Notes: a model not told the origin generated them from the letters alone. A DNA stretch of 64,000 nt from Candidatus Aminicenantes bacterium UBA647 (GCA_002299555.1 DBOL01000025.1:817-64816), one strand, 5' to 3'; positions 46,018 to 63,793 are shown, counted from the stretch's first letter. Made by a program: numbers and translations.

Positions 46018-46960
46018 ATCCGTAAGTTTCTCTTATAGTATAAACGTTTTTGTTAAGTCCCTCATGATAAACCCTTGTCAACATTTCAGCCAGTAATCCC
46101 AGAGTTATTATCTGGAAACCCAGGAACAGAACTAATACTGTAAATGTCAGGAGCGGCCTGTCTGCAGATTTCCCAAGAAAATACTTCTCATAAGTAATAT
46201 ACAACCCTGTTAAAACCCCGGAACCCATCATGAACATCCCCAGGCTACCGAAGATCTGGAGAGGACGGTGAGAGAAAGAGAGGAGATATTTTATTGAGAT
46301 AAGATCTAGAATAACTCTGAAAGTCCTTCCAAGTCCGTACTTTGATTTTCCGAATCTCCTTTCACGGTGATTAACCTGGATCTCGATCGATTCAATACCG
46401 ATCCTCGATGCGATAGCAGGAATATACCGGTGCATTTCTCCATATAATTTAAGTGTTTTTACAACATCTTTTTTAAATCCTCTTAACGTGCATCCATAAT
46501 CATGAAGCTTCACTTTCGTTATAAATGAGACCAGTTTGTTTCCAAAAAAAGAGGGGATCTTTTTTGTCAGACTGTCCTTTCTCTTCTTTCTCCAGCCGTT
46601 AACAATATCAAATCCTTCATCCAATTTTGCAATTACATCAGGAATGTCCGCCGGGTCATTCTGAAGATCCGCATCCAGGGTTATTACATAGTCACCACTA
46701 CAAAGTTCAAAACCTGCTGATATTGCAGAACTCTGACCGAAATTTTTTCTAAAACTAATTATCCGGACAGATTTATCCTTTTCCCTTAACTTTTTTAATT
46801 TATTCAGGGAATTATCTGTACTTCCGTCATTTATAAATATGATCTCATATTTTTGTACAAACCCTTTCAATACTTTCTTTATTTCATCGAAAAGAATTGC
46901 AACATTTTCTTCCTCGTTATATACAGGTATAACAATTGATAGTGATCTATTTTTTTTCAT
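45986..46960 (-). CDS. Glycosyltransferase family 2, polyprenol-phosphate sugar transferase type (ArnC/DPM1-like) with two C-terminal TM helices
   Basis: LSIVIPVYNEEENV, INDGSTD, LDADLQNDP (the DxD motif) and two C-terminal TM segments. I prefer the start at MKKNRS (46960). Confidence 0.85.
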   Translation of the reverse strand: MKKNRSLSIVIPVYNEEENVAILFDEIKKVLKGFVQKYEIIFINDGSTDNSLNKLKKLREKDKSVRIISFRKNFGQSSAISAGFELCSGDYVITLDADLQNDPADIPDVIAKLDEGFDIVNGWRKKRKDSLTKKIPSFFGNKLVSFITKVKLHDYGCTLRGFKKDVVKTLKLYGEMHRYIPAIASRIGIESIEIQVNHRERRFGKSKYGLGRTFRVILDLISIKYLLSFSHRPLQIFGSLGMFMMGSGVLTGLYITYEKYFLGKSADRPLLTFTVLVLFLGFQIITLGLLAEMLTRVYHEGLNKNVYTIRETYGFEDENIDDRT

Positions 46961-47246
46961 CAATAAACTCCAATTCATTCAATTTTTTCATTACATCACC
47001 TGCATCAATCCCAGGCTTAAGCACAATATGAGAAAGGGGATTGAGTATCTTACCAATATTTATTCTGACCCAAATCCTTTCATGAAAAAAGTAGGCTATC
47101 AATTTTATGACCATATCAAGTGCACCAATTTCAAGTGCAACAGTAATTTCTCCTGTAAACATGTATGCAATGCTGAAAGTAATAGAAGTGGCAATTACCC
47201 TCCAGCTGATTGCTTTTGCAAGGCTTCTTGTGTTAGTTTCTCTCAT
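46947..47246 (-). CDS. DUF2061-domain membrane protein
   Basis: RSLAKAISWRVIATSITF....TGE......IG..D...K...YF.HERIW matches my memory of DUF2061. I prefer ATG 47246 to TTG 47300. Confidence 0.55.
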   Translation of the reverse strand: MRETNTRSLAKAISWRVIATSITFSIAYMFTGEITVALEIGALDMVIKLIAYFFHERIWVRINIGKILNPLSHIVLKPGIDAGDVMKKLNELEFIDEKK

Positions 47247-48555: not shown

Positions 48556-50706
48556 CTACCTCCATGTATAAGGAGATAAGTTACCGCCAAGATCTCCTAT
48601 AGAATCAACCAGTAACTGAGCAACATATCTGGCATTATGAATATATCCGTGAGGTTCTTTCTTTGACAGCTGAAAGTTATAGGCAGCTTTCAAAAGGTTC
48701 GCAGAAAATCTGTATCCATTTGAATATGATGCCTCTCCACTATCCACAATACCGTTATTGTTAAGATCTTTGAAGAAATACGGATAGGTATGAGAGTCAT
48801 AAACTAGTGGTGCTTTCGACTGACTTCCAACTCTTTGCATTTGCGCATACAGGCTGTCTTCAAGTCCTATGATCTCGTATTTCATTGCTTCAGTTGTATT
48901 CCCGTCTCCATCATAATCGGGAATATTTGCAGGCCTTATTCCACTGAACTTGAACTTGGACGGATCTGCACCCGGATTCGGCTGGGCAATATCCTGTCCG
49001 TGACAATCGACACAATCAGCCTGGTTGGGTTTCTGAACATTATGACCTGTATTAGGTGATTTACCTTTTGTACCCATATGACACTCGATACAAGTTACAA
49101 ATTTGTTGTCATGGTTCGGGTACATCTGGCGTCCTGCATATACTTTCCCCGGATATTCATACCCACCCTGAACCTCGGTACCGAATAGTACAGCAGCTGT
49201 CGGGAAATAGTGGATATTTGTAAATGAATAATTTCCGGTTCCACCGGCTATCTTGCTGTCAACCGAAGCTTTTGAAGCGCGTCCCTGGTGACAGGCCATA
49301 CATAAGTTACTTGCGTCTCCCAAACTGACAACATCCCCTGATGGGAATTTCACGTCTGCCAGCTGCAGCAATGCGGGAGGGCCGGTATGACATGTAGTGC
49401 AAAGCATACCATTGGCGATCGGTTCAGGATCTTCATTGGTTCCGTCAGCAACATATTTAGCAAGTCCTGTCGCGCTATGACATCTTGCACAACTTGATTG
49501 AACTTCACCGTCTCCATCCCAATGTCTCCAGGCTTCCTGTGAACCGGCAAAATGACCTTCATCATTTCTGGTCATTTTTGACATATCAACTCCTCCAGTC
49601 ACAGAATTCATGTCAGCAATAGAATCATACATAAGTTGGATAAGGTATTTGCCTCCGTGAGCAAAAGCCCCCGGATCTTTTTGAGAAGTCTGGTAGTTAT
49701 ACGCAGCTTTTGCCAATCTTGGTGTAAATTTCTTATAACTATTTGCATACACAGCTTCACCCTCATCAATAACACCATCATTATTTGTATCAGTGAAAAA
49801 ATATGGATATGTATGTGATTCATAACCGATAGTTGTTCCAACTACATTTCTGGAGTATACCAGCATCCCGTTAAAGAGGGCATCCTGAAGGCCCTTCAGT
49901 TCATAATAGATCCCTTCAGTTGTATTCCCGTCACCGTCATAATCGGTAAAAGAACCGAAATACCTGATGTTGTGGAGATCCTCTTTACTCTCAATCCCGC
50001 TATGGCATGTATCACATTGTTCAATTTTGATCTCCAATGAATGGGGATCGTGACAATCAGTACAAGAGTTGTATCCGGTTACATGACCGAATTTCCCGTC
50101 ATATGTCTGCCCTGCATATTCATAACCGCCTTTGGCAAGAGTACCGTAAAGGATAGCTCCAGCCGGGAAATAATGGATATTTGAGAACCTGATAGATGAA
50201 GAGGGTGTATCCAATGCTTTGCCGGCAAGTCCTGCCATGACTGAAGGACCTGAAGATCTTCCCTGGTGACAATTCATGCAAATACCTTCATTTCCAAGAG
50301 GTTCATATGTTCCATCTTCATTCATCTCCCCTTTCACTTCGATACCTGAAGGAAATGTCACACCGGCAAAAACCTTCGGAGTCCCATTCTCAACATTAGT
50401 GTGACAGGTTTCGCAGGTAAAGGCTCCCGGTTCATGTCCATTCGCAACAGCACCGGTATTAGTAAATTCTTCGAATCCACCTGCACTGTGACATTTTGCA
50501 CAGCTGGATGGTACAACTGCCGGTTCATCCTCATCCCAATGGACAAATGCTTCCGACGTTGAATCATTATGGCCTGAATCGGCAAATAATGAATCCTGAA
50601 CAGTTTCGAACATAGCTTTATCCATATTACAGGACTGCAGAACAAACAATCCTGTTATAAAGACAAAACAGATTCCGATTATTGATAAATTTTTTCTTTT
50701 ATTCAT
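48556..50706 (-). CDS. Decaheme c-type cytochrome lipoprotein with internal 5+5 duplication (functional analogue of MtrC/OmcA-type surface cytochromes)
   Basis: Ten CXXCH motifs: CAKCH, CETCH, CMNCH, CTDCH, CDTCH, then CARCH, CTTCH, CMACH, CIECH, CVDCH. Lipobox-like LQSC after the signal peptide. GGAGG lies before ATG 50706; the ORF-track extension to 50805 would overlap the upstream gene. Confidence 0.85.
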   Translation of the reverse strand: MNKRKNLSIIGICFVFITGLFVLQSCNMDKAMFETVQDSLFADSGHNDSTSEAFVHWDEDEPAVVPSSCAKCHSAGGFEEFTNTGAVANGHEPGAFTCETCHTNVENGTPKVFAGVTFPSGIEVKGEMNEDGTYEPLGNEGICMNCHQGRSSGPSVMAGLAGKALDTPSSSIRFSNIHYFPAGAILYGTLAKGGYEYAGQTYDGKFGHVTGYNSCTDCHDPHSLEIKIEQCDTCHSGIESKEDLHNIRYFGSFTDYDGDGNTTEGIYYELKGLQDALFNGMLVYSRNVVGTTIGYESHTYPYFFTDTNNDGVIDEGEAVYANSYKKFTPRLAKAAYNYQTSQKDPGAFAHGGKYLIQLMYDSIADMNSVTGGVDMSKMTRNDEGHFAGSQEAWRHWDGDGEVQSSCARCHSATGLAKYVADGTNEDPEPIANGMLCTTCHTGPPALLQLADVKFPSGDVVSLGDASNLCMACHQGRASKASVDSKIAGGTGNYSFTNIHYFPTAAVLFGTEVQGGYEYPGKVYAGRQMYPNHDNKFVTCIECHMGTKGKSPNTGHNVQKPNQADCVDCHGQDIAQPNPGADPSKFKFSGIRPANIPDYDGDGNTTEAMKYEIIGLEDSLYAQMQRVGSQSKAPLVYDSHTYPYFFKDLNNNGIVDSGEASYSNGYRFSANLLKAAYNFQLSKKEPHGYIHNARYVAQLLVDSIGDLGGNLSPYTWR

Positions 50707-50719
50707 CGTTTTTCCTCCG

Positions 50720-52582
50720 TTATTTCCAACTGTAACCAAAGGAAATTTCAAATATATTGGCCTTGTAATCATTATAGCCAAAATCATTTTCCTTAAAATC
50801 AACATATCTGTAATTCAACTGACCGATAAAACCTTTTTCACAAAAATACTTGAAGAAGAGTTTAAAGTTAGTTCTTGTTAATTCCCATGATCCGTTGTTC
50901 TTGTAGTAGTTTAGATAAGCTCCGAGACCAGTCTTATCACTTAGTTTTGAGTAGACATAAAGGTCGAAAAGGTTTGAAGTCCCTTCGAAGAGTATATCCC
51001 AGACATAGGTCCCCTCGCCTCCGCTCCATGATGGCGGATAATAGATTGACCTGTCCCCTTTTCTGGTAACATCGATCAGAGAATATCCGGCTGAGAAATG
51101 AAGTTTTTTCTTGTAAATTCCAAGTCTGAGGTTCAGTTGATTCTTATCCGATGTCCACATCTCACCATTTTGATCACTTTCCGACTTATTGAACAAATAT
51201 GAACCACTGAAGTAAAGATTCTTGTTCTTGTATTTGGCAGTAAGCCTGAATCTGTGAAAATCAGTAGGTGAGATAAGAGTTAACGGATTATCATAAGTCC
51301 CATATTGATAATCTGCTGTTACTCTGAATTTTTTATTAAGCCTCAAGTTCAAATTTCCGAATATTCCGGTTTTGGATGTGGGTTCATTTACATCTTCGAT
51401 AACAATTGCATCTTCCACATCTCTCTGCTCCATTCTGTATCCGATAGTGAATCCGAATTTAGTGTTTGGTTGATACTGAAGCCCTGCTTCAACTCCTCCA
51501 GTTTCATATTTAAGATCCATTGAAGTTTTCTCCCCATCAATGGTCATAGATCCGGTCTGGTCAAAATTATTATAAAAAGTAGTTCCCACCAGAGCCATCT
51601 TATCATTCAGGAAGTAGGTAAAATCGAGATCATAGACCTGAGATTTTCTTGAGAAATCGCCATCTCCAGTATAGTCATATGAAAAACCTGCACCAACATA
51701 ATCGATACCCATTGCACTTTCATCATATGTGAACTCTGTATCCTGGTTCATGATCATAAAGCTGCCTTTCAGGAGAAGCCTTTTAATTGGATTAAATGTG
51801 AATTTTGCAGTGTGCGTAATGCCTTTCATATCATACGGCATATCAAGATGGAAATAATTAAGAGCTGTCGGATATCTGGCGAAATCACCACCGTCAGCAT
51901 ATCCGGGCAGGAACATGCTTGTTGCATTCTCAAAATCAGTAAATTTTTCTTCGATCACAAATGCAAAGCTCTTTCCGCTATAATCAAACCCGAGAGTTAC
52001 TTCAGTTGACATCTCATCTATTGGTTTTTCAAACTCAAACTCAACTCTTCCGATATCAAGTGTATTAACGCTCGATCCTTTCTTTGTGTAGCTGTTAAAA
52101 TCTATATATGCATGAGCACTTTTTCCCAGCCATACTTTGAAAAGGCCTGAATCGTTTATCCGGTCAAATGCATAAGTGTGAAAATCATGTCCTTCAAGAT
52201 GGTCATTATAAAAATATTCTGATTTTCTTCTGTTAAACTTAAACTTGTACTTCCCGTTTTTCACAATATCGAGACCCATACTTTCAAATGGGTCGCCGCC
52301 AAAATTGTGAATATAGACATTCATGTAATCAAAATATTTGTTCATTTTCCCGGCGGGGGCGAAATGAATATTGAAATCGAACAATCTGACCCCATCACCA
52401 AGGTTAATATCCTCTTTGTATTTTGATTCAACTCCGCTTACATCAACATACCTGTACCCTACCAGGAATTTTCCGTAAAACTCATCCTCACCTTGTTCTC
52501 CGGCAGAAAGGGATATTGATGACACAAATCCACAGAACAGGATAACCATTAAAATTGTTAAAAATGATTTATTTATTTTCAT
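50720..52582 (-). CDS. Large outer-membrane beta-barrel, MtrB/PioB-like position in a porin-cytochrome module
   Basis: Signal peptide and 620 aa of alternating aromatic/Gly/Asn/Asp-rich strand-like sequence with no Cys-rich or catalytic motif. It sits between two decaheme genes with 10 and 13 nt gaps. Confidence 0.6.
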   Translation of the reverse strand: MKINKSFLTILMVILFCGFVSSISLSAGEQGEDEFYGKFLVGYRYVDVSGVESKYKEDINLGDGVRLFDFNIHFAPAGKMNKYFDYMNVYIHNFGGDPFESMGLDIVKNGKYKFKFNRRKSEYFYNDHLEGHDFHTYAFDRINDSGLFKVWLGKSAHAYIDFNSYTKKGSSVNTLDIGRVEFEFEKPIDEMSTEVTLGFDYSGKSFAFVIEEKFTDFENATSMFLPGYADGGDFARYPTALNYFHLDMPYDMKGITHTAKFTFNPIKRLLLKGSFMIMNQDTEFTYDESAMGIDYVGAGFSYDYTGDGDFSRKSQVYDLDFTYFLNDKMALVGTTFYNNFDQTGSMTIDGEKTSMDLKYETGGVEAGLQYQPNTKFGFTIGYRMEQRDVEDAIVIEDVNEPTSKTGIFGNLNLRLNKKFRVTADYQYGTYDNPLTLISPTDFHRFRLTAKYKNKNLYFSGSYLFNKSESDQNGEMWTSDKNQLNLRLGIYKKKLHFSAGYSLIDVTRKGDRSIYYPPSWSGGEGTYVWDILFEGTSNLFDLYVYSKLSDKTGLGAYLNYYKNNGSWELTRTNFKLFFKYFCEKGFIGQLNYRYVDFKENDFGYNDYKANIFEISFGYSWK

Positions 52583-52592
52583 GATTCTGCTC

Positions 52593-53402
52593 CTATTTCA
52601 AAAATAATTTATCCAGGTTGGAACCATGGATGGATGAATGGCAATTAGCACAATTTGTATCATTAGCAAGGAATCTCAAATGCCAGTCCGGTGCAACTGA
52701 ATGACAGCTGAAGCATAATTCCCTTACACTCTGATGTTTAAGCATATGCCTGTTCGGTGACCCGTGGACATCATGACAAGCTGTACAGCCTTCAACGCTG
52801 GATGCTTCATGTTCATGCATGAAAGGGCCGCCTTTATCACGGTGACATTTCAAACATGATTCCTGCTTAAAACCACCGAGTCTCTGACGTGCCGCACTCT
52901 CATGAGGATTATGGCATGAAGTACACTCAAGGATCCCTTCTGCAAGGCGGTGTTTTTCATTCAGCATGAATTCCGTGGCAACATCCTGATGACAGGATGT
53001 ACAAAGTTTTGTGTTAAGTTTTGCCATTGAATTCACTTTTTTATGAACTCCATGACACTTGGTACAATCTATACCTGCTTTTGAATGTTCACCATTCATA
53101 AAACCTCCAACAACCGTTTTATGACAGGACAAACATTGTTTGGATTTCTGAAGTGCAGTCTCATTTTTGAATGAGAATATATTCCCGGACTCAGCATTAT
53201 CCAGATGCTTTGCAGCATTTCCATGACAGTCGATACATTTTGCGCTGGAAATACCATGAGCTGTTCCGATAAACTTCACGGAAACTTCATCATGGCACTC
53301 AGCACAAACATTTCCGGCACCCTCTTCTCCGAAAATATCAACCGAAAGGAACACTGTCAGACAGAACGTCATTAACAATACTCCGAAGATTCGTTTATTC
53401 AA
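52593..53402 (-). CDS. Periplasmic decaheme c-type cytochrome (MtrA/DmsE-like size and heme density)
   Basis: Ten CXXCH motifs in 269 aa: CAECH, CIDCH, CLSCH, CTKCH, CTSCH, CTSCH, CLKCH, CTACH, CFSCH and CANCH. It has a signal peptide but no lipobox. The start is TTG, with AGGAGG 8 nt upstream. Confidence 0.85.
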   Translation of the reverse strand: MNKRIFGVLLMTFCLTVFLSVDIFGEEGAGNVCAECHDEVSVKFIGTAHGISSAKCIDCHGNAAKHLDNAESGNIFSFKNETALQKSKQCLSCHKTVVGGFMNGEHSKAGIDCTKCHGVHKKVNSMAKLNTKLCTSCHQDVATEFMLNEKHRLAEGILECTSCHNPHESAARQRLGGFKQESCLKCHRDKGGPFMHEHEASSVEGCTACHDVHGSPNRHMLKHQSVRELCFSCHSVAPDWHLRFLANDTNCANCHSSIHGSNLDKLFLK

Positions 53403-53471
53403 TTTTCCTACCTCCTAATATTTATTTTGTTAATCTTTAACTTTATAGTTAAAGTCTTAACAATTAAAAGA

Positions 53472-53487
53472 AGCATTAAACTTGCCA
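53472..53487 (-). promoter_or_regulatory. Candidate sigma-54 (-24/-12) promoter: TGGCAAG-N4-ATGCT
   Basis: The minus strand reads TGGCAAGTTTAATGCTT. The invariant GG and GC lie at the consensus spacing of TGGCACG-N4-TTGCW, with 2 mismatches. It is about 70-85 nt upstream of the decaheme start codon. Confidence 0.4.
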
Positions 53488-53560
53488 CGCCTTGTTAATG
53501 TAACTGGTTTTGTTTTATTTGAATTATAGGGATTCTTCAATACTGCAACAATTCATCAGT

Positions 53561-53595
53561 GTGTTCAAAACCGAACACATGTTCAATTTTGAACA
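53561..53595. promoter_or_regulatory. Two tandem inverted repeats TGTTC-N6-GAACA (TGT-N10-ACA type), a candidate enhancer-binding-protein UAS
   Basis: GTGTTC-AAAACC-GAACAC at 53561-53578 and TGTTCAA-TT-TTGAACA at 53580-53595. Their centres are 18 bp apart and lie about 80-105 bp upstream of the candidate -24 element. Confidence 0.4.
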
Positions 53596-53616
53596 ACCAC
53601 TATGCCAATAAAGTAT

Positions 53617-54561
53617 TTACTTATTTCTCCGATAGGTCCTTAATAACACTCTGTAACTTCGTTTAAATATTTTATTGCTCAGCTCTATTTTCCCATTACT
53701 TTCAAGGATCTCCGCAGCTTTGTAAATTGCAGGGAAGAAAGATGGTTCTATAAGAGAAAATCTTGAAAGGTTTTTAATGTTTTCCGGTGAAGGATCAGTT
53801 ATTGATCTTCCTAAATAGAGACCTAATTTCAATCTTTTTGAATCCTTTGCTTTTAAAGCCTCTGTAAAAAAAAATTCTGACTCCATTATTTTATCCTGCA
53901 TAATGAGAGCATATCCATAACCGAGTCCGGCTTCCTCATTTTCACTATCCTTTTCTACAGCTTTTTTGTATATATTCTCTGCAAGTTGATAATTTCCGTC
54001 TATTATCAGAGTAAAAGCCTGCTTTGTTATCCGGTTGAGTTTCCTTTGCTCAAGTTTTTTATCAAACTCTTTGTATACATCACCCGGAGCCTCTCCTTTT
54101 CCAAGAGCCAGTAAATGATTTTTAAAGAATAGACTCAAATTTGATCTGTAACTGACGATCAATGAGTTCAGAATTCCTGCCTCGTTAATAAAGAGCACCG
54201 TGGGCATAACTATGATCCCGAGATTACCATAAATTTTTCTTTCAGGATCATTGAGATTTTTCTTCTCTCCTTTAATTTTGTTAAAAAGGATCATCACCCT
54301 TTTGTCAGTTTCATTATTAACATCAACAAGGAGAAAATAAAGATTTTTTCTTGAATTATATACTTTGCTGAATTGTCTGAAGAATGCAATGGATCTGGGC
54401 TCATCCGATTTCAAATACAGCAAAACCGACTTCTCTTTTCCCTCGAGAAACTTCAACTCATTGACCAGAGGGATATTATCGCCGGTCTTTATCTCCCGCA
54501 AGCCTTCAACATCTGCAGGAAACATATAAAAAGTTAAAAGCAGTAAAACTATTGCTTTCAT
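53617..54561 (-). CDS. Secreted protein with a Cys-less thioredoxin-like N-domain and TPR-like C-domain (function unknown)
   Basis: Signal peptide. A TlpA/redoxin-like strand-helix pattern (SVLLYLKSDEPRS..FF......LYFLLVDVN....MPTVLFI) lacks the CXXC. The C-terminus is a helical repeat region. An ATGA overlap links it to the upstream cytochrome gene. Confidence 0.4.
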   Translation of the reverse strand: MKAIVLLLLTFYMFPADVEGLREIKTGDNIPLVNELKFLEGKEKSVLLYLKSDEPRSIAFFRQFSKVYNSRKNLYFLLVDVNNETDKRVMILFNKIKGEKKNLNDPERKIYGNLGIIVMPTVLFINEAGILNSLIVSYRSNLSLFFKNHLLALGKGEAPGDVYKEFDKKLEQRKLNRITKQAFTLIIDGNYQLAENIYKKAVEKDSENEEAGLGYGYALIMQDKIMESEFFFTEALKAKDSKRLKLGLYLGRSITDPSPENIKNLSRFSLIEPSFFPAIYKAAEILESNGKIELSNKIFKRSYRVLLRTYRRNK

Positions 54562-55844
54562 AACCCCTTAACCTTTTTATTTCTGTCATATGAATATTCT
54601 TTGTGACATCCTGGTGCACAACTTCCACCGGTTTTTGTCTTTTCAAATCCAACCGGCAGGCTCCATTTCCCAAATGGTGTCTCTTTTCTAATGTGTTTGG
54701 GCAGATTACTGGCATGGATCTCATGACATGCCCGGCAAGTCCTCCCCTTTGTCATGTTCACATGAACATAATGGAGATTCCAGTCACCATCTCTAAAATT
54801 TGTAAGAGCTACGGTTCTTTCAACCTTTGCCAGTTTGCTCTCATGACATTCGAAGCAGGAAGCATATTTTTTCTCTTCATAAGCAGTATAGAATTCTTTC
54901 GGGAATTCATCCTTAAGGATCATATAAAAATCAGAACCATGAGGATCATGACACCCGGTACAATTACCATCCTTAATAGGACCGTGTTTGAATTTGTTTC
55001 TGTTCACGATCTTAAAAATATTGTAATCCTTACCATCCGTTCCAATTAATTTTTTGTCATGGCAATTAAGGCAAAGTTTAAGTGGAGAAATTTTGAGGTT
55101 ATTATCATAAAGAGAGCCGTGTGCATCATGGCAGTTGTAGCATTTCTTATTCTCATTTACTACAGCATGTTTGAACTTTACTGAATCAACTTTATCTGTT
55201 ATTTTTTTGTGACATTCACTACAGAGTTTTTCACGATCTGCAATTAATTGAAATTCATGGCCGGAGGAGTGAGGGCTGTGACATTTTGAACAACCCTCTT
55301 TCATAGGAGAGTGCATTTTCTGATCCGCACCTGAAAAATCCTTATCAGAATGACACCTTGTACATATTACTTTCATAGGCTCGACAAGGAGAAATTTATT
55401 ATTTGAACTGTGGGACTCATGACATAACGAGCAATTTCCCGAAGCGTTGGGTCCATGAACAAATTTTTTGTTCATCGGGTCTTCATCATGGCAGTCAAAG
55501 CATACCTTGTCGATCCTCTTATGCTTTAAAAAGGCTTTGTAATCTCCGCCATGCGAAAAATGACAATCTGTACAATCGCCTGAGGAGACAGCATCATGCA
55601 CATTTTTTTTGTCGGTCTGATCGTCATGACACTCATTACAATGTTCATTAATATTTGCGATCTTTGTAAATTTGTGATCGCCTGTCTTTTCATGACAGGT
55701 AAGGCAATCATCATCAACAGGTGCATGGATCACTTTGTAATCTTTCATATCCTTATGACACTCTGAAGTCACACAACTTTTTTCTGCACCGCCTGCAAAA
55801 GAAAAAAGAAATAAAACAGCTAATAATGCATAAAATAATTTCAT
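54558..55844 (-). CDS. Periplasmic multiheme c-type cytochrome, 13 CXXCH plus CX4CH and CX3CH variants (c7/c3-type repeat architecture)
   Basis: Canonical motifs: CLTCH, CNECH, CTDCH, CFDCH, CSLCH, CTRCH, CSKCH, CSECH, CYNCH, CLNCH, CTGCH, CFECH and CRACH. Variants: CVTSECH and CAPGCH. Signal peptide present, with GGAGG upstream. Confidence 0.85.
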   Translation of the reverse strand: MKLFYALLAVLFLFSFAGGAEKSCVTSECHKDMKDYKVIHAPVDDDCLTCHEKTGDHKFTKIANINEHCNECHDDQTDKKNVHDAVSSGDCTDCHFSHGGDYKAFLKHKRIDKVCFDCHDEDPMNKKFVHGPNASGNCSLCHESHSSNNKFLLVEPMKVICTRCHSDKDFSGADQKMHSPMKEGCSKCHSPHSSGHEFQLIADREKLCSECHKKITDKVDSVKFKHAVVNENKKCYNCHDAHGSLYDNNLKISPLKLCLNCHDKKLIGTDGKDYNIFKIVNRNKFKHGPIKDGNCTGCHDPHGSDFYMILKDEFPKEFYTAYEEKKYASCFECHESKLAKVERTVALTNFRDGDWNLHYVHVNMTKGRTCRACHEIHASNLPKHIRKETPFGKWSLPVGFEKTKTGGSCAPGCHKEYSYDRNKKVKGL

Positions 55845-55855
55845 CCTAATACCTC

Positions 55856-57538
55856 CTATTTTTCATAATCTTCCGGAGAATGATCTTCTCCATGACATTG
55901 CAGATAGCAATATCCTTTATTTCCTACGACTTCAAATTTTAACTCACCATCTAAATTCGGAAAAACAACACTCGTATCAAAATTAATTAATCCGATATTT
56001 TGCCTTGACCCATGAGGATCATGACATACTGAACATGGGGTGCTCTCTTCATTAATATGTTTCTTGTGATATTTAAAGGTTGTCAGATTTTCACTCATTA
56101 TGATCTCCGGCCTGTGACACTTCCAGCAAAGATCATAATTTGATTGTTGATAAGGCATCCCGGATGCAATCAAATACCTTCTTTCCAATAAGTTCTCATG
56201 AATTGAACCATGAGGCCCTTCAGGGCCACTACCACCTGCTTTCATTGAATTATTATTGTTATGACAATCGGTACAATTCATTATCGACGCAACATTCCAT
56301 GCAGGTCGCAAAGAGGGGACACCTGAAATTCCTCCTTTTTGTACAACACTATGAAAACTCTTATTGGAGGGGAGAAAGGCTTCCCTCATATTAGAATTCT
56401 GATATTGTCTGCTGACATCAAAACTATTGTATTTATCCTGCCCGTGACATTTCAAGCAAACCTCAAATTCAAATTGTGATTCTTCAATAATTGATCCGGT
56501 AATATTCATCCCTGATACGCCCGCCAACCGCCCATTAACCTGAGGGGCAACTGATTTTAATGAATTTACTCTGTGAGGATTATGGCAGTCAACACACTGA
56601 ACGTGAATATTGTTTAATAATATATTCTCTTTTGCATCGTGAATATTGCTGTATAAAGCAGAATCAACTGAATGAGATACATTTTTTCTCAACTCAGATC
56701 TAATATCAATACCGGTATTACCATTGTGACAAGCTAAACACGATTCCGAATCAGGGCCCTTTAGTAATAAATGGTGACTCCCCTCTGCATTATGACTTTG
56801 ATGACAATTCATACAGGAATTCTCAGTTACAGACTTATTGTTCGTATGAAACCACGGGTTCTTTCCAACTCCACTCCACGTCTTAGCCGAAATATCGTGA
56901 GTGGAAAGTCCATTATATCCTATAGGATCATGACATGATTTACACAAGGCTCCACCTGAAATATCTTTAACCAGAAATTTCGGGAAATTATCATGGTGAG
57001 GATCGTGACAGGTTGTACATTGGATCTTCCCATTCTTATCATATCCCACTTTATCATCAAGAGAAGGGTGCTTATACTCCGGAGAGGATGAAACAACGTT
57101 ATTACTACTAAAAGATATGGGATGATCATCTGAGATATTTTCTCCCAGGTTAGCAGAATGACCCCTTGGGAATCTTCCTGCATCTGTATTAGTTACAGAC
57201 ATATTTTCTGATCGGTTCAGCACTCTCCCCAATGCTATTGTCCCATCGTGACATGAAAGGCAAAGTTTCGAAGCTCCGTCAGGTTGTCCCAGAACAGAGT
57301 ACAATGTGGAGCTGCTGTAAAGTGTGTATTGAACCGAAGAACTTTCACGATTCCACAGAGGGAAATTCTTACCTTTTGTGTGAGAAGTGTGGCAAAAAAT
57401 ACAAATTTGACTGTCACTTGTGGCTTTGATATTGCCAGCACTGGAACTTGACAAATTGTGCTTTGAATTCTTTATACTTCTCGATGAAGCAAAAAATCCT
57501 AAAATAAAAATTAATGAAAAAATCGCAAGTCTCTTCAT
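55856..57538 (-). CDS. Multiheme c-type cytochrome, 11 CXXCH plus one CX3CH (doubled-CXXCH / Geobacter-type family)
   Basis: Canonical motifs: CIFCH, CLSCH, CTTCH, CKSCH, CMNCH, CLACH, CVDCH, CLKCH, CTDCH, CWKCH and CSVCH. Variant: CYLQCH. The N-terminal SKHNLS....CIFCHTSH...PLWN pattern is present, with a signal peptide. Confidence 0.85.
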   Translation of the reverse strand: MKRLAIFSLIFILGFFASSRSIKNSKHNLSSSSAGNIKATSDSQICIFCHTSHTKGKNFPLWNRESSSVQYTLYSSSTLYSVLGQPDGASKLCLSCHDGTIALGRVLNRSENMSVTNTDAGRFPRGHSANLGENISDDHPISFSSNNVVSSSPEYKHPSLDDKVGYDKNGKIQCTTCHDPHHDNFPKFLVKDISGGALCKSCHDPIGYNGLSTHDISAKTWSGVGKNPWFHTNNKSVTENSCMNCHQSHNAEGSHHLLLKGPDSESCLACHNGNTGIDIRSELRKNVSHSVDSALYSNIHDAKENILLNNIHVQCVDCHNPHRVNSLKSVAPQVNGRLAGVSGMNITGSIIEESQFEFEVCLKCHGQDKYNSFDVSRQYQNSNMREAFLPSNKSFHSVVQKGGISGVPSLRPAWNVASIMNCTDCHNNNNSMKAGGSGPEGPHGSIHENLLERRYLIASGMPYQQSNYDLCWKCHRPEIIMSENLTTFKYHKKHINEESTPCSVCHDPHGSRQNIGLINFDTSVVFPNLDGELKFEVVGNKGYCYLQCHGEDHSPEDYEK

Positions 57539-58470
57539 TCCGTCTCCTGAATTACCTTGAAAATTTGTATCCTGCTGTTGTAAGTATCTAAAACAAAGAT
57601 TCTTCCCGCTTTATCTAATAGTATCCCGCTTGGCATCCAAAAATTTAAGTCTCCACTTCCGGGGCCACCAAAATAATGCAAAAACTGTCCGGAACTATCA
57701 AAAATCTGGATATTGTCAAACATTACATCAGTTACATATATCCTCTTTTCGGAATCAACAGCTATACCTTTAGGCTTCGAAAATTCGCCCCCACTTCGCC
57801 CGTTTCTACCAAATGTGGCGACAAACTCTCCACTATGATCAAATATCTGAACTCTGAAATTTAATGCATCAGTGATATATATGCTATCTGTATCAACAAC
57901 AATATGTGTAGGATAATTGAACTTCCCGATTTCACTTCCACGATCTCCAAAATGGAGAATCTCTTTACCTTCCAGATCATAAATTACAACCTGATGATTT
58001 TGTGTGTCAGTACAAAATAATTTTCCAAGATAAAAATATATCCCGGTTATCCTTCTGTTCTGGTCACTTATTAAAATTCTTTTATATTTCAGATCCTTTC
58101 CAAATTCAATGACAGACCTGTAATATGAGTCCGAAACATAAAATCCCCCTGAATTCCCCCTGGCACAACTTACAGGTGAAATAAAATTCTTCCCATTGAA
58201 AGTTGAAATGTTTTTTTTCCTGTCTCCTTTCTCATTGATGATAACGATACGACCATTTGACTGATCTGTGACACAATACAGCCCTTTATCTATTTCCACA
58301 ATTGAGACCGGTTTGATCAGGAGGTCAGGTTTTTTCCCGAATAAAACCTCTACAATATTTTTTTTCTTCTTACCTTTTAGATCAATTATTTTTTCAAGCT
58401 TAACGGTCTCACCGGAAGCAAAAGTGCTGATCAGTAAAATTGAAAGTATTAATGAAATTAGATTTTTCAA
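57535..58470 (-). CDS. NHL-repeat six-bladed beta-propeller protein (periplasmic)
   Basis: Signal peptide. Repeated ~45 aa units have F..P.GI..D..G.IYV.D..N.RIQ.F (for example YPTHIVVDTDSIYITDALNFRVQIFD and PKGIAVDSEKRIYVTDVMFDNIQIFD). The start is TTG, overlapping the upstream stop (TTGA). Confidence 0.8.
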   Translation of the reverse strand: MKNLISLILSILLISTFASGETVKLEKIIDLKGKKKKNIVEVLFGKKPDLLIKPVSIVEIDKGLYCVTDQSNGRIVIINEKGDRKKNISTFNGKNFISPVSCARGNSGGFYVSDSYYRSVIEFGKDLKYKRILISDQNRRITGIYFYLGKLFCTDTQNHQVVIYDLEGKEILHFGDRGSEIGKFNYPTHIVVDTDSIYITDALNFRVQIFDHSGEFVATFGRNGRSGGEFSKPKGIAVDSEKRIYVTDVMFDNIQIFDSSGQFLHYFGGPGSGDLNFWMPSGILLDKAGRIFVLDTYNSRIQIFKVIQETE

Positions 58471-60425
58471 AAAAGCCTCCTTATAATTATACTGAAATAT
58501 GTGTGCTTCTTATTCGCTAAATAGTAATCATTCAGGAAATGTTCAAAGAACAGATCGATCACCACTTTTCTGATCGTCCAATTGAATTTGATTATAAGGC
58601 TTTCTCTTTCTGCCAGATATACCGAGGTTTTATTACTTAAATATCTGTATATGGCATTGAACCTGACTCCGTGCCTTGGATTAAAAGTCAGATCTCCCAT
58701 ATACAATTTATAATCTCCTCTCAGATCACCATTATCATAATGTGTTATTTTTGAGATAAAGTTACCTGAAAATTTAAAATATTTCAAAAATCCAAATCCT
58801 GAATTGAGCCTGAAGTATCTTGAACGATATCCTGAAAAAGATGAACTATACCTGTCAATCATGTATTCACAATTGACCAGCCTTGCATCTACGCGAAATC
58901 CATAGTTTTCACTTTCAAAATCTTCGTACGGTTGAACAAGATATTCAGAACTAAGAAACATATCATTATCATACTTCCTGTAAAACAGATGGAAATATTT
59001 CAAAAAATATAAAGAAGCACTGATCTGAGTGTAATCATTCCTCAGCTTATGATCCGGGAAGGTCTGATAATGATAATAGATAGCCACCCTCTCTCCGGAC
59101 GACATTGCGCCTCCGGGGATCCTGAGGATATTAATAACATTGTCAACAATAGTAATTTCATAATCGATGTATTCAATGTATATTCTGGTCAGATCCACAT
59201 TGGTTATTCGGATACTGTCAACTTGAATTCCCGGAATTGATAATAAGATCGTATCTGAAAAAGTAAACTTCCTGAATTCACTTACTTCAGAGATATCACT
59301 TTTTGAAATAAAATCACGATTTTCAATGCTTTTCCCCAAATTAAAATTTATTGCTCCATTTTTGATCTTTTTTGTGTAATTAATCGTCAATTGACCTTTA
59401 TAAGACTTGATATCCTGGAAAGAAGAATTCTCAAGTCTTCCTGACAATGAAGCTGTTGTTGTGAGACTGTCAAAAAGTTTATGTCTTAACGAAGATACAA
59501 GTTCCCCTTTCTGATAGGAATTATTATTTGACAGATCATTTGAATATGAAAATAAATTAAGTGAGAACAGGCCCTTCCGGATGAAGTTACTGGTATTAAA
59601 TGTGAAACCTAAGGTTTCCAGTGAAAGATCTTCTGTCATTTTCCGGTATGACACATTTGATATAACAAAGTTCCTCTTACTATTCCCGTAAAAATAGGAA
59701 AAATCATTCCGGATATCAAATGATTGAAAATTCAGACCATAAACCTTTTCTGAAAAATCTTTCCAATTTGATCTGAGCGTTAACTTACCGTTCTTAATAC
59801 GTGCAAGATCGGAATAAAATTCTATATTTTTGCTTTCTTCATTTCTCTCTTCATAAGATATCGATTCCGATAAACTTTTACTTTTGTATGCTTTCAACCT
59901 GAAAGGTAATAATTTTGTCCCGTTGCTGATCGCGAATCCAATACTTTCATTCAACAGATATTTCCTCTCAAAATAGTTTCGGTCCGATGTACTGAAACCT
60001 TTCATTGCAAAAATATCAAAATGTATTTTCTTCTTCTTAAATAAATTCAGGACAATATTGTAAGTGTTGTTGACAGAATTGTTAATGTCAGAATCTGAAA
60101 ACAATGTCCTTTTTGCTCTATAACCTACCAGACTAAAATTTATATTAAATGTCAACAGATTGGGATGGTAAATGCTTCCACTGGAATTTATCTGAATTCC
60201 ACCTTCAAAATACTTTCGAAAAATATCACTGCTAACAAGACCGTCAAATGAATCAATATCGCTGGTTGACTCATATTTAAGGATAAATGCTCCCGAAAAA
60301 TCGGATAGTTTAAATAAAGAAATTTCCTGTGCTGACAAATAATTAAAAGGAATAAACAACAAATTCAATACAACAATAACTTTCAAAAGGGATTTATTCC
60401 GGATAGCCTTAAAAAATTTTCTCAT
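58467..60425 (-). CDS. Large outer-membrane beta-barrel candidate of the second cytochrome module
   Basis: Signal peptide (..NYLSAQE). 652 aa of Tyr/Phe/Asn/Ser-rich alternating sequence ending ..IIIRRLF, with a C-terminal Phe typical of OMPs. ATGA overlaps occur on both sides. Confidence 0.55.
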   Translation of the reverse strand: MRKFFKAIRNKSLLKVIVVLNLLFIPFNYLSAQEISLFKLSDFSGAFILKYESTSDIDSFDGLVSSDIFRKYFEGGIQINSSGSIYHPNLLTFNINFSLVGYRAKRTLFSDSDINNSVNNTYNIVLNLFKKKKIHFDIFAMKGFSTSDRNYFERKYLLNESIGFAISNGTKLLPFRLKAYKSKSLSESISYEERNEESKNIEFYSDLARIKNGKLTLRSNWKDFSEKVYGLNFQSFDIRNDFSYFYGNSKRNFVISNVSYRKMTEDLSLETLGFTFNTSNFIRKGLFSLNLFSYSNDLSNNNSYQKGELVSSLRHKLFDSLTTTASLSGRLENSSFQDIKSYKGQLTINYTKKIKNGAINFNLGKSIENRDFISKSDISEVSEFRKFTFSDTILLSIPGIQVDSIRITNVDLTRIYIEYIDYEITIVDNVINILRIPGGAMSSGERVAIYYHYQTFPDHKLRNDYTQISASLYFLKYFHLFYRKYDNDMFLSSEYLVQPYEDFESENYGFRVDARLVNCEYMIDRYSSSFSGYRSRYFRLNSGFGFLKYFKFSGNFISKITHYDNGDLRGDYKLYMGDLTFNPRHGVRFNAIYRYLSNKTSVYLAERESLIIKFNWTIRKVVIDLFFEHFLNDYYLANKKHTYFSIIIRRLF

Positions 60426-60973
60426 ATCTTTTTCAGGAAAAATTTGTTGTCAGAGATATGGGGATCATGACATTCAAGGCAATTATCTCCTTTACAGGGG
60501 AGTGACGCTCCTGTTATTGGAGTTCTGTGGCATAAAACACATAGTTTCTTCCCATCTGCCAGCAGGAGTTTTCTGTTCTCGGATTGATGAGGGTTATGAC
60601 ATGTATTACATGCCCTTACTGCAACCGGCCCATGAACATATGGCCCTTCGAATTTTTCCTCCTTATGACAGATAAAACAGAGCTCTTTTTTCCCTGCTCT
60701 CAGAAAATTTGAAACATCTCTGGTATGACATTTGGTACACTCTTTTGTTTTATAATCGGGATGAGTTGATATGAATCGAACCTTAACGACTTTACGCCGA
60801 TCCTGCCCGGCAATATTTTTATCCTCAGTTTTAATTACTTGCCCGACCTCTGGCCCGGGGACACCATCAAAAAAAACCGAAAGAACTTTTCTATGCTTTT
60901 GAACAACGCAGGAACTCAATAAAATGAGGTTGATTAAAAAAAATACTACTAAAACAGAATTATTTTTCTTCAT
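60422..60973 (-). CDS. Pentaheme c-type cytochrome lipoprotein
   Basis: Motifs CTKCH, CFICH, CNTCH, CVLCH and CLECH. The signal peptide has lipobox-like LLSSC when started at MKKNNS (60973); the ORF-track extension to 61012 is unlikely. Confidence 0.8.
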   Translation of the reverse strand: MKKNNSVLVVFFLINLILLSSCVVQKHRKVLSVFFDGVPGPEVGQVIKTEDKNIAGQDRRKVVKVRFISTHPDYKTKECTKCHTRDVSNFLRAGKKELCFICHKEEKFEGPYVHGPVAVRACNTCHNPHQSENRKLLLADGKKLCVLCHRTPITGASLPCKGDNCLECHDPHISDNKFFLKKI

Positions 60974-62066
60974 ATTCTCCAAATGCATATACATTAACTT
61001 TATTTTTCCCAAAATTAGAAGTTATATACAATAAATATTCGGCTTTAAAATCCGGAGAAATATATTTGGAAAACAAAGATAAATTTTCATAATCAATTGT
61101 AATCGCCGCCGGCATATAAAGGTTATACCTCTCCCTTCCGGGCCCAAGCATGTGAAGGAGTAATTTCTTTTCTTTATTAAATATCTGTACATTCTGAAAT
61201 GCAGAATCGATTACATATATCCGCCCCTGTTTGTCAATATCGATCCCCTTCGCTCTGACAAAATTTCCCGGGCGATCACCGATACGCCCCAGACTGTCAA
61301 TATATTTTCCATTGATATCAAAGATAGATACTCTGTTATTTGTTGAGTCAACAATAAAGATTTTGTTCTCAAAAATTTTTATACTTGTCGGATGATACAA
61401 TTGCCCTTCCATCCTCCCCTTTTCACCGATCCGCCTTAAAATTTCCCCTGTCCTGATATCCAACACAAGAATCTGATGGGCTTTTACATCACTGACAAAC
61501 AGTTCATCTCCTCTAATATCAATATCAGATGGAGAAAACTCCCTCTTTTCACCATATACTTTCAGCAGATCACCATCAATATTATAAGCAAGAACCTGCT
61601 TTCTTAACATGTCTGCAACATATATAATGTTATTTTCTTTATCAATTGTTATATTCACGGGCTTTAAAAGTCTGCCCTGACCTTTATATCCCAAAAATCC
61701 AAGTTTCCTTTTTACCAGATCCAGAGTAACAACAACGTTGCTTCTGGAATCACATACATATATAACTCCTCTGTATGAATCAACACCATGTGCCTTTTTT
61801 ATTACAAAATCTTTCTTTGTCTCAGAACCGGCAACAAATCTAAAGAATTTACTTTTCTTTTTCTCAATATCACTTGAAGTAGTGAAAGTTGTCAGATATT
61901 GATATCTGGGTTTTGCCGGCAAAGGCGGAAAAAAAACATATTTTTTTTTGTTATCAGGGGAAGTTTTCAGTGTATTATACTTTGAGCAGAAAGGGAATAG
62001 CGTCACCAATAACATAATCATTACAAGTGATAGTGTTTTCCCGATTCTCATGTCCAAGGGATGCAT
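60960..62066 (-). CDS. NHL-repeat beta-propeller lipoprotein
   Basis: Lipobox LFPFC. NHL units include AHGVDSYRGVIYVCDSRSN.VV, PVNITIDKENNIIYVADMLRKQVLAY, HPTSIKIFENKIFIVDSTNNRVSIFD and AKGIDIDKQGRIYVIDSAFQNVQIFN. AGGAG lies 6 nt before ATG 62066. Confidence 0.8.
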   Translation of the reverse strand: MHPLDMRIGKTLSLVMIMLLVTLFPFCSKYNTLKTSPDNKKKYVFFPPLPAKPRYQYLTTFTTSSDIEKKKSKFFRFVAGSETKKDFVIKKAHGVDSYRGVIYVCDSRSNVVVTLDLVKRKLGFLGYKGQGRLLKPVNITIDKENNIIYVADMLRKQVLAYNIDGDLLKVYGEKREFSPSDIDIRGDELFVSDVKAHQILVLDIRTGEILRRIGEKGRMEGQLYHPTSIKIFENKIFIVDSTNNRVSIFDINGKYIDSLGRIGDRPGNFVRAKGIDIDKQGRIYVIDSAFQNVQIFNKEKKLLLHMLGPGRERYNLYMPAAITIDYENLSLFSKYISPDFKAEYLLYITSNFGKNKVNVYAFGEYEEK

Positions 62067-62131
62067 TTCTCTCTCCTTCAATGAAACTATAAAACAATAT
62101 TACCAAAAGGAATTATAAAATTAAAGAATCC

Positions 62132-62167
62132 TAAAAAAAAAGCCCCGATCGTAACCGAGGCTTTTTT
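62132..62167 (-). terminator. Rho-independent terminator after the tetraheme gene
   Basis: The imperfect GC-rich hairpin AGCCCCGATCGTAACCGAGGCT at 62141-62162 is flanked by A9 on one side and T6 on the other. Read on the minus strand, the hairpin is followed by a T9 run. Confidence 0.55.
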
Positions 62168-62197
62168 GTTACTTTTTAACTTAATACAACAATAAAA

Positions 62198-62839
62198 TTA
62201 TTTGTTATGACAGGTCAGACAAAGAGCACTCTGAACATTGCTCTTTCTGAGAAGATTTGCTACATTTGCAGTATTGTGAACATCATGACAAGACGAGCAC
62301 TCAAGAAGGTTATTACCGGCACCCTCTAGCATATCATCATCGATATTCGCTCCCAATCCGGACGCAGTCAAAGTCGGATCATGAAGTTCGGTATCCAGAG
62401 CAACTAAAGCTACATCGTAAGCAATGGAGATCGGATGATCATTTGACAAATCCAGACCTACATTAGCAGCACCTGTTAAAGGTACCGTTCCAACTGTACC
62501 GCCAAAGCTGTCCAGTGCAGTAACGCCATCATGACATGATAAACACAGCAATGAAACCCCGGCAGGATCCCCTACTGTTGCATTCATATCATATCCTGCT
62601 CCATAATTTACGAATGTTTGAGTTGATTCTGTATGATTCCATAGTGGAGCATCTGTAATTGTTGCGTCACCATTATGAGGAGTATGACATGGCTGACATA
62701 ACTCGCCTCCAGTCCCACTATTCCATGCATCTGCATTAAATCCGGTTCCGTCGCTAAAATCATGAGCTGAACCACCAATCAGAGCATAAAGACCTGCTGC
62801 AACCGTGATCGAAAGTAAAATAAATAATACTTTTTTCAT
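62198..62839 (-). CDS. Tetraheme c-type cytochrome (doubled-CXXCH family), secreted
   Basis: Motifs CQPCH, CLSCH, CSSCH and CLTCH. The pattern SAHDF....CQPCHTPHN....APLWN is present. There is a signal peptide from MKKVLF (62839), with AGGAG upstream. Confidence 0.85.
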   Translation of the reverse strand: MKKVLFILLSITVAAGLYALIGGSAHDFSDGTGFNADAWNSGTGGELCQPCHTPHNGDATITDAPLWNHTESTQTFVNYGAGYDMNATVGDPAGVSLLCLSCHDGVTALDSFGGTVGTVPLTGAANVGLDLSNDHPISIAYDVALVALDTELHDPTLTASGLGANIDDDMLEGAGNNLLECSSCHDVHNTANVANLLRKSNVQSALCLTCHNK

Positions 62840-62892
62840 TATAAACTCCTTTAAAATTAATTTAATATGACATTTCCATGACATACAAAGAT

Positions 62893-62921
62893 AATATAGA
62901 TTCAAATCGTTTATATGTCAA
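62893..62921 (-). promoter_or_regulatory. Sigma-70-type promoter for the tetraheme gene: TTGACA-N17-TATATT
   Basis: On the minus strand, TTGACA lies at 62921-62916, followed by a 17 nt spacer and TATATT at 62898-62893. This is about 55 nt upstream of the start codon. Confidence 0.5.
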
Positions 62922-62963
62922 TTATATCGAGTCCTATTTACGGTTTGATTTATGAAAAATCTA

Positions 62964-62983
62964 TTTGCAACTTTAGTTGCAAA
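62964..62983. promoter_or_regulatory. Perfect 9-2-9 palindrome TTTGCAACT-TT-AGTTGCAAA in the divergent intergenic region
   Basis: Verified by hand. It lies between the divergent tetraheme gene and the 63047 gene, with no T-run that would make it a terminator. Confidence 0.35.
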
Positions 62984-63046
62984 AAAAAAGCAAACATGGT
63001 ATTAAATATTTAATGAAGTTGACAATCTATAAAGGGAGAAATTATT

Positions 63047-63793
63047 GTGAATATTTTTAAAAATAAAGGAAGTATTGTGACAGCAATGCTGATGATAGGA
63101 TTCCTGGCCTTCTCCGGGTCGGGAACCGAACTCTCCGCAGAAAATAAAATTGAACCCAAGATCCATAACGGGAAACTTCTGCAGATGTTCAAGTCGGGAG
63201 GATACACCTATCTGGAATATGAATCAGATGGTAAGAAGTTCTGGGCTGCATCAAAAATGGTCGTTGCAAACATCGGAAATATCATTGAATTCAACAATCC
63301 TCTGGAAATGAAGGACTTTTATTCAAAATCATTGAAAAGAAAGTTCGAGCTCATTTATTTTGCAGGAATGGTGAGAGCTGTCGGCAAACCGGGAGAACTT
63401 TCCATGAAATCAATGCAGAGCATGACGGGACACAAAAAAATGGGCACCGAAAAAAAAGTTATTGTTGTCAATGCCGGCTCTGTAAAAAAAGCAGACAGCG
63501 GGTACACAATAGCAGAGTGCTTCTCGCAAAAGGATGCATTAAAAGGAAAAACGATACTGATACGGGCAATAGTAGTGAAATTCTCCCCGAAAATAAAAGG
63601 GAGAAATTGGGTCCATATAAGGGACGGAAGCGGGATTGCAGGCACGAACGATATAACGTTTACAACAAAGGAAACTTTAACTCCGGGAGATCTTATTCTG
63701 GTTAAGGGGATTCTCTTACTTAACAAGGATATTGGCTCAGGATATTTATTCCCGGTATTTTTGGAAGATCCGGAGGTTGTAAAGGAGAAATAA
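63047..63793 (+). CDS. Secreted hypothetical protein with two OB-fold-like modules
   Basis: Signal peptide. The patterns SGGYTYLEYESDGKKFWAA and KGK.I.IRA.VVKF.P.I.GRNWVHI.DGSG recall a family I remember from metal-reducing and anaerobic bacteria. The start is GTG, with AAGGGAG upstream. Confidence 0.5.
   Translation: MNIFKNKGSIVTAMLMIGFLAFSGSGTELSAENKIEPKIHNGKLLQMFKSGGYTYLEYESDGKKFWAASKMVVANIGNIIEFNNPLEMKDFYSKSLKRKFELIYFAGMVRAVGKPGELSMKSMQSMTGHKKMGTEKKVIVVNAGSVKKADSGYTIAECFSQKDALKGKTILIRAIVVKFSPKIKGRNWVHIRDGSGIAGTNDITFTTKETLTPGDLILVKGILLLNKDIGSGYLFPVFLEDPEVVKEK

Follow-up and report, generated by a model that had tools for sequence, protein, structure and literature searches.

The omcE gene cluster of Desulfuromonadia comprises two multihaem cytochromes, two beta-propeller lipoproteins, OmcE and a large beta-barrel, and the barrel and the propeller lipoprotein have been used as criteria for recognizing nanowire-competent OmcE homologues (bioRxiv 10.1101/2025.10.22.684050). 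In OmcE wires, the interfacial haem is ligated by His residues from two subunits (PMC12954529). Among the products of the Desulfuromonadia operons, none is an OmcE-like protein with additional haems suited to be the tip or base of the filament (bioRxiv 10.1101/2025.10.22.684050). Here, we describe a cluster in a 64,000-nt stretch from Candidatus Aminicenantes bacterium UBA647 (GCA_002299555.1 DBOL01000025.1:817-64816), and this whole stretch is referred to as the window. The cluster consists of an OmcE-like gene (u1) and the seven genes downstream of it (g1 to g7), and we consider with moderate confidence that they form the Aminicenantes version of an omcE-type cluster, which would encode a cytochrome nanowire plus an outer-membrane conduit. 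The cluster is real and conserved and, judged from homology and gene context, from which its function is also predicted, a variant of the omcE type in phyla not listed for it: the hosts reported here (Acidobacteriota/Aminicenantes, Verrucomicrobiota, Planctomycetota, and others) are outside the five phyla listed for that type (bioRxiv 10.1101/2025.10.22.684050).

NHL propellers in clusters for extracellular electron transfer are already known from two other systems (PMC5815863, PMC9769857; bioRxiv 10.1101/2022.05.06.490989). In the D. ferrophilus IS5 islands DFE_0448-0451 and DFE_0461-0465, six-bladed NHL propellers, including one lipoprotein, occur between the multihaem cytochromes, and they were proposed to stabilize an outer-membrane cytochrome complex (PMC5815863, PMC8322314, PMC9769857). 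Compared by description only, the island also has a lipoprotein pentahaem-like cytochrome, and no porin or barrel was reported there. The Uet cluster (uetABCDEFGHIJ) of Ca. Tenderia electrophaga encodes the tetrahaem UetA, the large barrel UetC, the NHL proteins UetH and UetI, and the undecahaem UetJ (11 CXXCH, predicted to be extracellular), with a TPR protein encoded nearby (bioRxiv 10.1101/2022.05.06.490989). Unlike the window cluster, and compared by composition only, it contains a peptidyl-prolyl isomerase, three trihaem c7 proteins and a cupredoxin, has another gene order, and was proposed to serve electron uptake. By analogy, the window cluster may represent one and the same variant with the Uet cluster and the island of D. 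ferrophilus; our literature search found no paper linking Uet to OmcE.

The MtrCAB and Geobacter Ext/Pcc systems share with the window the logic of a periplasmic MtrA-like cytochrome, a large barrel and lipoprotein or surface cytochromes, with a cytochrome gene directly ahead of the barrel gene. In contrast to these systems, the window barrel has no Pfam match to MtrB/PioB, a full MtrC is absent, and the window cluster has an OmcE subunit and two propellers in addition; the resemblance to Geobacter ExtABCD/ExtEFG is architectural only. The osc cluster of G. sulfurreducens OmcS, as summarized in PMC13194489 (citing Shen et al. 2025), encodes the channel-like OscEFG for secretion, the folding factor OscH, and OscD, which affects nanowire morphology. 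Compared by that description only, it is like the window in that a nanowire cytochrome gene has companions, and unlike it in belonging to another filament family (hexahaem OmcS). OscD is said to be beta-propeller-like.

An OmcE homologue and a coupled seven-gene cluster

The gene u1 (62198-62839, minus strand) encodes a tetrahaem cytochrome of 213 aa with a Sec signal and 4 CXXCH motifs. It was found directly upstream of g1 and had escaped the first-pass annotation, which had taken 53617-62066 as the complete unit; the seven genes of that span stood, whereas the span itself was too short, leaving out the functionally linked u1. Searched against the PDB with phmmer, u1 matched the D. soudanensis OmcE filament (9yuq_N, E = 5e-31) and G. 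sulfurreducens OmcE (7tfs_A, E = 4e-25), both over the full length. In an alignment of the two OmcE sequences, 29 u1 orthologues and 35 N-termini of g5, all 8 haem-ligand columns (the 4 CXXCH and 4 further His) were kept in both OmcE and in 28-29 of the 29 u1 orthologues. The four further haem-ligating His are H31, H58, H149 and H208 in the Geobacter OmcE numbering. These features make u1 a putative nanowire subunit.

The sequence around u1 carries several expression signals. Its ATG is preceded by an AAGGAG motif, and upstream lies the best sigma-70-like site of the 16-kb scanned region (62893-62921, minus strand; TTGACA-17-TATATT), an 11/12 match that is a match to the consensus only. Between u1 and g1, RNA folding found an intrinsic terminator or attenuator, a hairpin followed by U9 (62131-62167, minus strand; -17.6 kcal/mol, z = -4.2). 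A loose terminator scan was non-specific, with 12 of 37 control sites positive, and was dropped in favour of a strict scan of the Aminicenantes loci. There, a strict terminator followed the OmcE-like gene in 6 of 8 loci, compared with 0-1 locus after each of the genes from g1 to d2, the latter encoding an outer-membrane protein downstream of g7. Such a layout would be expected where a major filament subunit is highly expressed and the genes of its machinery come after it, although the expression is a prediction. The genes g1 to g7 could be reached by read-through or from a promoter of their own.

After a gap of 131 nt, seven consecutive minus-strand genes occupy 53617-62066, and their open reading frames (ORFs), junctions and haem counts were all as first annotated. 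Domains were assigned with Pfam and NCBIfam, and haems were counted by a scan for CXXCH-type motifs. The genes encode a six-bladed NHL propeller that is a probable lipoprotein (g1 or NHL1, 60960-62066; Pfam NHL and DUF5128), a pentahaem lipoprotein cytochrome (g2, 60422-60973; 5 CXXCH, lipobox LLSSC, Paired_CXXCH_1), a 652-aa outer-membrane beta-barrel of an unnamed family (g3, 58467-60425), a second NHL propeller with a Sec signal (g4 or NHL2, 57535-58470; Pfam NHL, 1.4e-24), a 12-haem cytochrome (g5, 55856-57538; 11 CXXCH and 1 CX3CH), a periplasmic MtrA-like cytochrome with 13(+2) haems (g6, 54558-55844; 13 CXXCH, CX3CH and CX4CH), and a periplasmic protein with a thioredoxin fold and TPR, assigned by family profile and Pfam, that lacks CXXC (g7, 53617-54561). 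Read base by base, the junctions from g1 to g7 are a 14-nt overlap, ATGA, TTGA, ATGA, an 11-nt gap and ATGA. A Shine-Dalgarno-like motif lies ahead of each start except that of g3; g1 starts at an ATG with GAAGGAG, and its longest ORF would begin at TTG 62081. The overlapping junctions had been taken as a sign of fixed stoichiometry. The coupling held for g1 to g7, while the proposal did not extend to the filament subunit u1, which has its own promoter-like site and terminator.

The Desulfuromonadia clusters were compared by scoring the genes of the G. sulfurreducens locus (L043) and of two further loci (L045 and L046) with hidden Markov models of the window families. Geobacter OmcE matched the u1 family at 1e-41. 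The NHL lipoprotein of the Geobacter cluster matched g4 at 4e-60 and g1 at 3.5e-50, the matches of g1/g4 to the Geobacter and Desulfuromonadia cluster lipoproteins ranging from 1e-47 to 4e-60. The 9-haem cytochrome of 370 aa matched g6 at 7.7e-85 and the 8-haem cytochrome matched g2 at 1.4e-27, and L045 and L046 behaved alike for both cytochromes. Since the u1, g1/g4, g6 and g2 families all match Desulfuromonadia genes, the module is a relative of the omcE cluster. Shared with the clusters of G. sulfurreducens and D. soudanensis WTL (7TFS, 9YUQ) are an OmcE-family tetrahaem cytochrome with the same ligand positions, one or more NHL lipoproteins, two paired-CXXCH cytochromes akin to g6 and g2, and a large barrel without a Pfam family. 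The module had initially been judged the hardest to match to a characterized system; with u1 and the OmcE module of g5 included, it matches the omcE nanowire cluster. The differences include the barrel, with 652 aa in the window vs. ~750-775 aa in Desulfuromonadia and no detectable sequence homology, and resB/ccsB, which are not directly upstream of the window cluster. Genes like g5, g3 and g7 were not found within ±10 kb of omcE in the three Desulfuromonadia loci.

Cytochromes, barrel and NHL propellers

The cytochrome g5 had been read as a plain 11(+1)-haem protein, but its first ~200 residues are an OmcE module. Residues 9-204 matched 7tfs_A (E = 1e-27), and the 8 OmcE haem-ligand positions were kept in 32-35 of the 35 N-terminal modules of g5 orthologues. 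Residues 161-551 aligned to g6 (E = 3e-9), the terminal CX3CH included, and g6 matched PDB 6r2q_A (E = 1.2e-12), which we take to be MtrA of the Shewanella Mtr complex, although the match table labels this chain otherwise. On account of the matches of g5 to 7tfs_A and g6, and of g6 to 6r2q_A, g5 is a chimera of an OmcE head (residues 1-204) and an MtrA/g6-like tail. This conserved OmcE-MtrA-like fusion cytochrome is a plausible candidate for the base of the filament. Nearly every complete g5 orthologue has 11 CXXCH. The family is large, with at least 7,913 proteins at E <= 1e-20 in a collection clustered at 90% and 433 clusters of 50% identity at E <= 1e-30; among the matches listed, the closest was 95% identical and annotated as Candidatus Aminicenantes bacterium.

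The g6 protein scored 126 bits on TIGR03508 vs. a cut-off of 192 bits and has 13-15 haems vs. 10 in the MtrA/DmsE family. A lipobox was found in 27 of 34 g2 orthologues, and the g2 gene is always immediately upstream of the barrel gene. In the Verrucomicrobiota loci, the cytochrome gene at the position of g2 carries 9-17 CXXCH.

The first-pass reading of the 652-aa ORF g3 as a large beta-barrel agreed with its AlphaFold2 (AF2) model, which had a predicted local distance difference test score (pLDDT) of 70 and showed a large barrel with about 25 or more long strands, a stretch left unmodelled at residues 80-148, and a small beta domain inserted at 379-453. Most of the 37 full-length orthologues listed end in ..RRxF, with a C-terminal Phe as expected of an outer-membrane protein. 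No Pfam or NCBIfam family, MtrB/PioB included, matched g3 at E < 0.01. Foldseek returned only generic large barrels, all with template modelling (TM) scores below 0.3, and assigned no family (FimD, LptD and TonB-dependent receptors, TM 0.14-0.28 and 6-12% identity; MtrB, 6r2q_B, TM 0.22). The identities of TonB-dependent receptor, LptD and BamA were rejected, as Pfam and NCBIfam gave no plug, LptD, POTRA or Omp85 match. A relationship to the neighbouring 620-aa outer-membrane protein d2 was also rejected, sequence and profile comparison giving no homology. In one Verrucomicrobiota metagenome-assembled genome (L009:3762-6554), the barrel and NHL2 frames form one continuous ORF of 930 aa, owing either to a true fusion or to a frameshift in the assembly.

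The two propellers fall in distinct paralogue groups at every locus. A Cys after the h-region was found in 21 of 36 g1 orthologues, and most members of the g1 and g2 families are lipoproteins; g4 has no lipobox Cys in the window copy, and its family mostly has a plain signal peptide. The family profile of g7 matched ResA (4nmu, E = 3.8e-12) in the N-terminal half and TPR proteins in the C-terminal half, and AhpC/Redoxin Pfam matches were present in 5-6 of 10 orthologues. The earlier thioredoxin-like label for g7 thus holds at the family level only, since CXXC was found in 0 of 10 orthologues, and a redox role for this domain was rejected on the same ground. The thioredoxin fold appears to have been kept without redox chemistry, and g7 is more likely a chaperone or scaffold than a redox protein.

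Conservation across genomes and competing explanations

A degenerate-pattern scan with the barrel family over 185,579 species genomes yielded 42 loci, which span at least 7 phylum-level groups. Eight belong to Aminicenantes/Acidobacteriota, with barrels 33-42% identical to that of the window, and the others to Verrucomicrobiota, Planctomycetota (Phycisphaerae), Kiritimatiellota, Omnitrophota, Thermodesulfobacteriota, and Neomarinimicrobiota. The order NHL1, lipoprotein cytochrome, barrel, NHL2, 11-haem cytochrome was kept in the 42 loci wherever the contig allows, and 4-nt overlaps at g2/g3, g3/g4 and g4/g5 were seen in many loci of several phyla (longest-ORF calls). The gene arrangement is more than chance. 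Since this core order was kept, the NHL propellers are integral to the cluster. Fortuitous adjacency of the NHL genes was rejected on the basis of the synteny, and the neighbourhood check bore out the earlier view of them as part of the cluster, with both paralogue lineages in essentially every homologous locus. An OmcE-like gene was found in 31 of the 42 loci, and g6 and g7 were present in Aminicenantes and a few other loci.

In Verrucomicrobiota subdivision 3 (L030-L037 and L041), the OmcE-like gene and NHL1 are separated by a gene, ~3 kb upstream of NHL1, for a protein of 800-1100 aa with 8-9 CXXCH. This protein may correspond to the eight-haem cytochrome described from 'novel porin-MHC' clusters of freshwater Verrucomicrobia (PMC5615132).

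From the homologies, synteny, ligand conservation and expression signals, we inferred the following mechanism. The periplasmic MtrA-like g6 would collect electrons and hand them to the haem proteins in or on the ~26-strand g3 barrel, namely g2 and/or the MtrA-like tail of g5. At the other end of g5, the OmcE head would be exposed at the cell surface, where it could seed or cap the filament and serve as a base for polymerizing u1, which would be expressed separately and more strongly. The contact between the g5 head and u1 would be an inter-subunit His-haem link as in OmcE filaments. The lipid-anchored NHL1, the soluble NHL2 and the cysteine-less g7 would be assembly or scaffold factors rather than redox components, and the electrons might flow outward, in the respiration of minerals or humics, or inward. 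In its most specific form, the proposal is that g5 is the base or adaptor of an OmcE-type nanowire, the OmcE module seeding or terminating the filament through the His-haem cross-link and the MtrA-like tail of the same polypeptide plugging into a dedicated barrel and wiring the filament directly to the periplasm, that the NHL proteins are obligatory assembly subunits, and that the fused adaptor, instead of the Geobacter architecture, would be the common form across several phyla, in view of the 433 clusters of the g5 family. This form of the proposal is tentative, and we offer it as a possibility only.

Several observations weigh against assigning the cluster to the omcE nanowire type. Filament formation by u1 was deduced from ~30-40% sequence similarity and the conserved ligands. 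The gene order is cyt-cyt-NHL-OmcE-(NHL)-barrel (cyt, cytochrome) in Desulfuromonadia vs. OmcE-NHL-cyt-barrel-NHL-cyt-cyt-Trx/TPR (Trx, thioredoxin) in the window. Comparison of g3 with the barrel of the Desulfuromonadia omcE clusters gave E = 0.3 with hmmsearch --max and probabilities of 0.2-1.7% with hhalign; as barrels diverge fast, the two may yet be remote homologues. The AF2 model of g5, which contains no haem, was poor in the OmcE module (pLDDT 30-50) and had no Foldseek match in the PDB at E <= 0.001, which led us to regard haem-free models of multihaem cytochromes as uninformative. In D. ferrophilus, deletions of cytochrome genes in the NHL-containing island had no Fe(III)-oxide phenotype (PMC9769857), the island being likened to the window cluster by gene content only. 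Finally, an OmcE-like gene was not found nearby in four loci with enough flank (L021, L022, L038 and L042), so that the conduit may work without a filament.

These four loci, which keep the core, also favour the main rival explanation, a conduit without a nanowire similar to MtrCAB or Ext. Here, g6 and g2 would act in the barrel, g5 would be a terminal reductase at the surface, and u1 would be a monomeric tetrahaem shuttle that is secreted or loosely bound. The match of g6 to MtrA is consistent with this explanation, as is a stretch of g5 resembling domain II/IV of MtrC/MtrF (1e-13), and in D. ferrophilus the extracellular proteome was enriched in DFE_0465, a small multihaem cytochrome of the NHL-containing island, for which a role as mediator was suggested (PMC8322314). 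However, u1 keeps every haem ligand of the filament-forming OmcE, all eight His; its signals resemble those for the expression of a major subunit; and it lies in the context that was used to pick nanowire-competent OmcE homologues (bioRxiv 10.1101/2025.10.22.684050). We therefore regard a conduit without a nanowire as a serious but rather unlikely explanation.

It is less probable still that the cluster is an oxidative module for electron uptake, taking electrons in from minerals, cathodes or partner cells as proposed for Uet and the D. ferrophilus island. Its gene content parallels that of Uet (tetrahaem, barrel, two NHL, undecahaem and TPR proteins; bioRxiv 10.1101/2022.05.06.490989) and of DFE_0461-0465 (PMC5815863, PMC8322314), but the likeness is one of composition only. 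Moreover, uptake concerns only the direction of flow, which is unreadable from sequence because multihaem chains are reversible, and it is compatible with the favoured architecture of nanowire plus conduit. A catalytic (lactonase-, SGL- or arylesterase-like) or metal- or mineral-binding role for the NHL propellers is very improbable, as the weak Pfam matches of g1 and g4 to SGL, Arylesterase and MRJP are all below the curated cut-offs and reflect the common propeller fold, and a structural partner would better account for the strict co-occurrence of the propellers, and their translational coupling, with the barrel and cytochromes.

Neighbouring genes and significance

Directly downstream of g7, a second, classical porin-cytochrome trio was found on the minus strand (48556-53402). 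It comprises a decahaem cytochrome of the DmsE/MtrA family (52593-53402; TIGR03508, E = 1e-49), the 620-aa outer-membrane protein d2 (50720-52582), and a 716-aa lipoprotein decahaem cytochrome (48556-50706), and no strict terminator was detected between g7 and the trio in the Aminicenantes loci. Further along the same strand, 44857-46978 encodes glycosyltransferases of families 2 and 4, and there are purine biosynthesis genes, one purB-like (43532-44830) and one purL-like (38807-42565). The omcE clusters of Desulfuromonadia also have purine genes on their flanks and glycosylation genes after them, a resemblance that may be coincidence.

Divergently from u1, the plus strand encodes a secreted protein of 248 aa from an unnamed family (63047-63793), with no match in Pfam, NCBIfam or PDB. 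Its homologues adjoin the cluster in 17 loci, lying directly after the 11-haem gene in Verrucomicrobiota, and it is possibly a further conserved, accessory member of the system.

Compared with L001 and L004, the region 48556-63793 showed a mosaic divergence. The flanks (the 248-aa protein and the downstream trio) were 80-94% identical, whereas the genes from the OmcE-like gene through g5 were only 38-67% identical, the barrel being the lowest; in L004, g6 was again 94% identical. The pattern is suggestive of a replaced cassette or of diversifying selection acting on the apparatus exposed at the surface.

The secretion, anchoring and electrical connection of nanowires to the cell were stated to be an open question (bioRxiv 10.1101/2025.10.22.684050). 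The window cluster encodes in g5 a candidate for the tip or base that is absent from the Desulfuromonadia operons, and translational coupling links the g5 gene to a propeller gene and the latter to the barrel gene. Through g5, the question of the filament base becomes testable. That the surface cassette has diverged strongly between genomes that are otherwise similar may be a sign of diversifying selection on the exposed apparatus. This type of cluster occurs in Aminicenantes, Verrucomicrobiota, Planctomycetota, Kiritimatiellota, Omnitrophota, and Marinisomatota-like genomes, and such groups are mostly seen as fermenters or polysaccharide degraders. Given its occurrence in these phyla, nanowire-type extracellular electron transfer may be far commoner in sediments, bogs and groundwater than the cultured models indicate.

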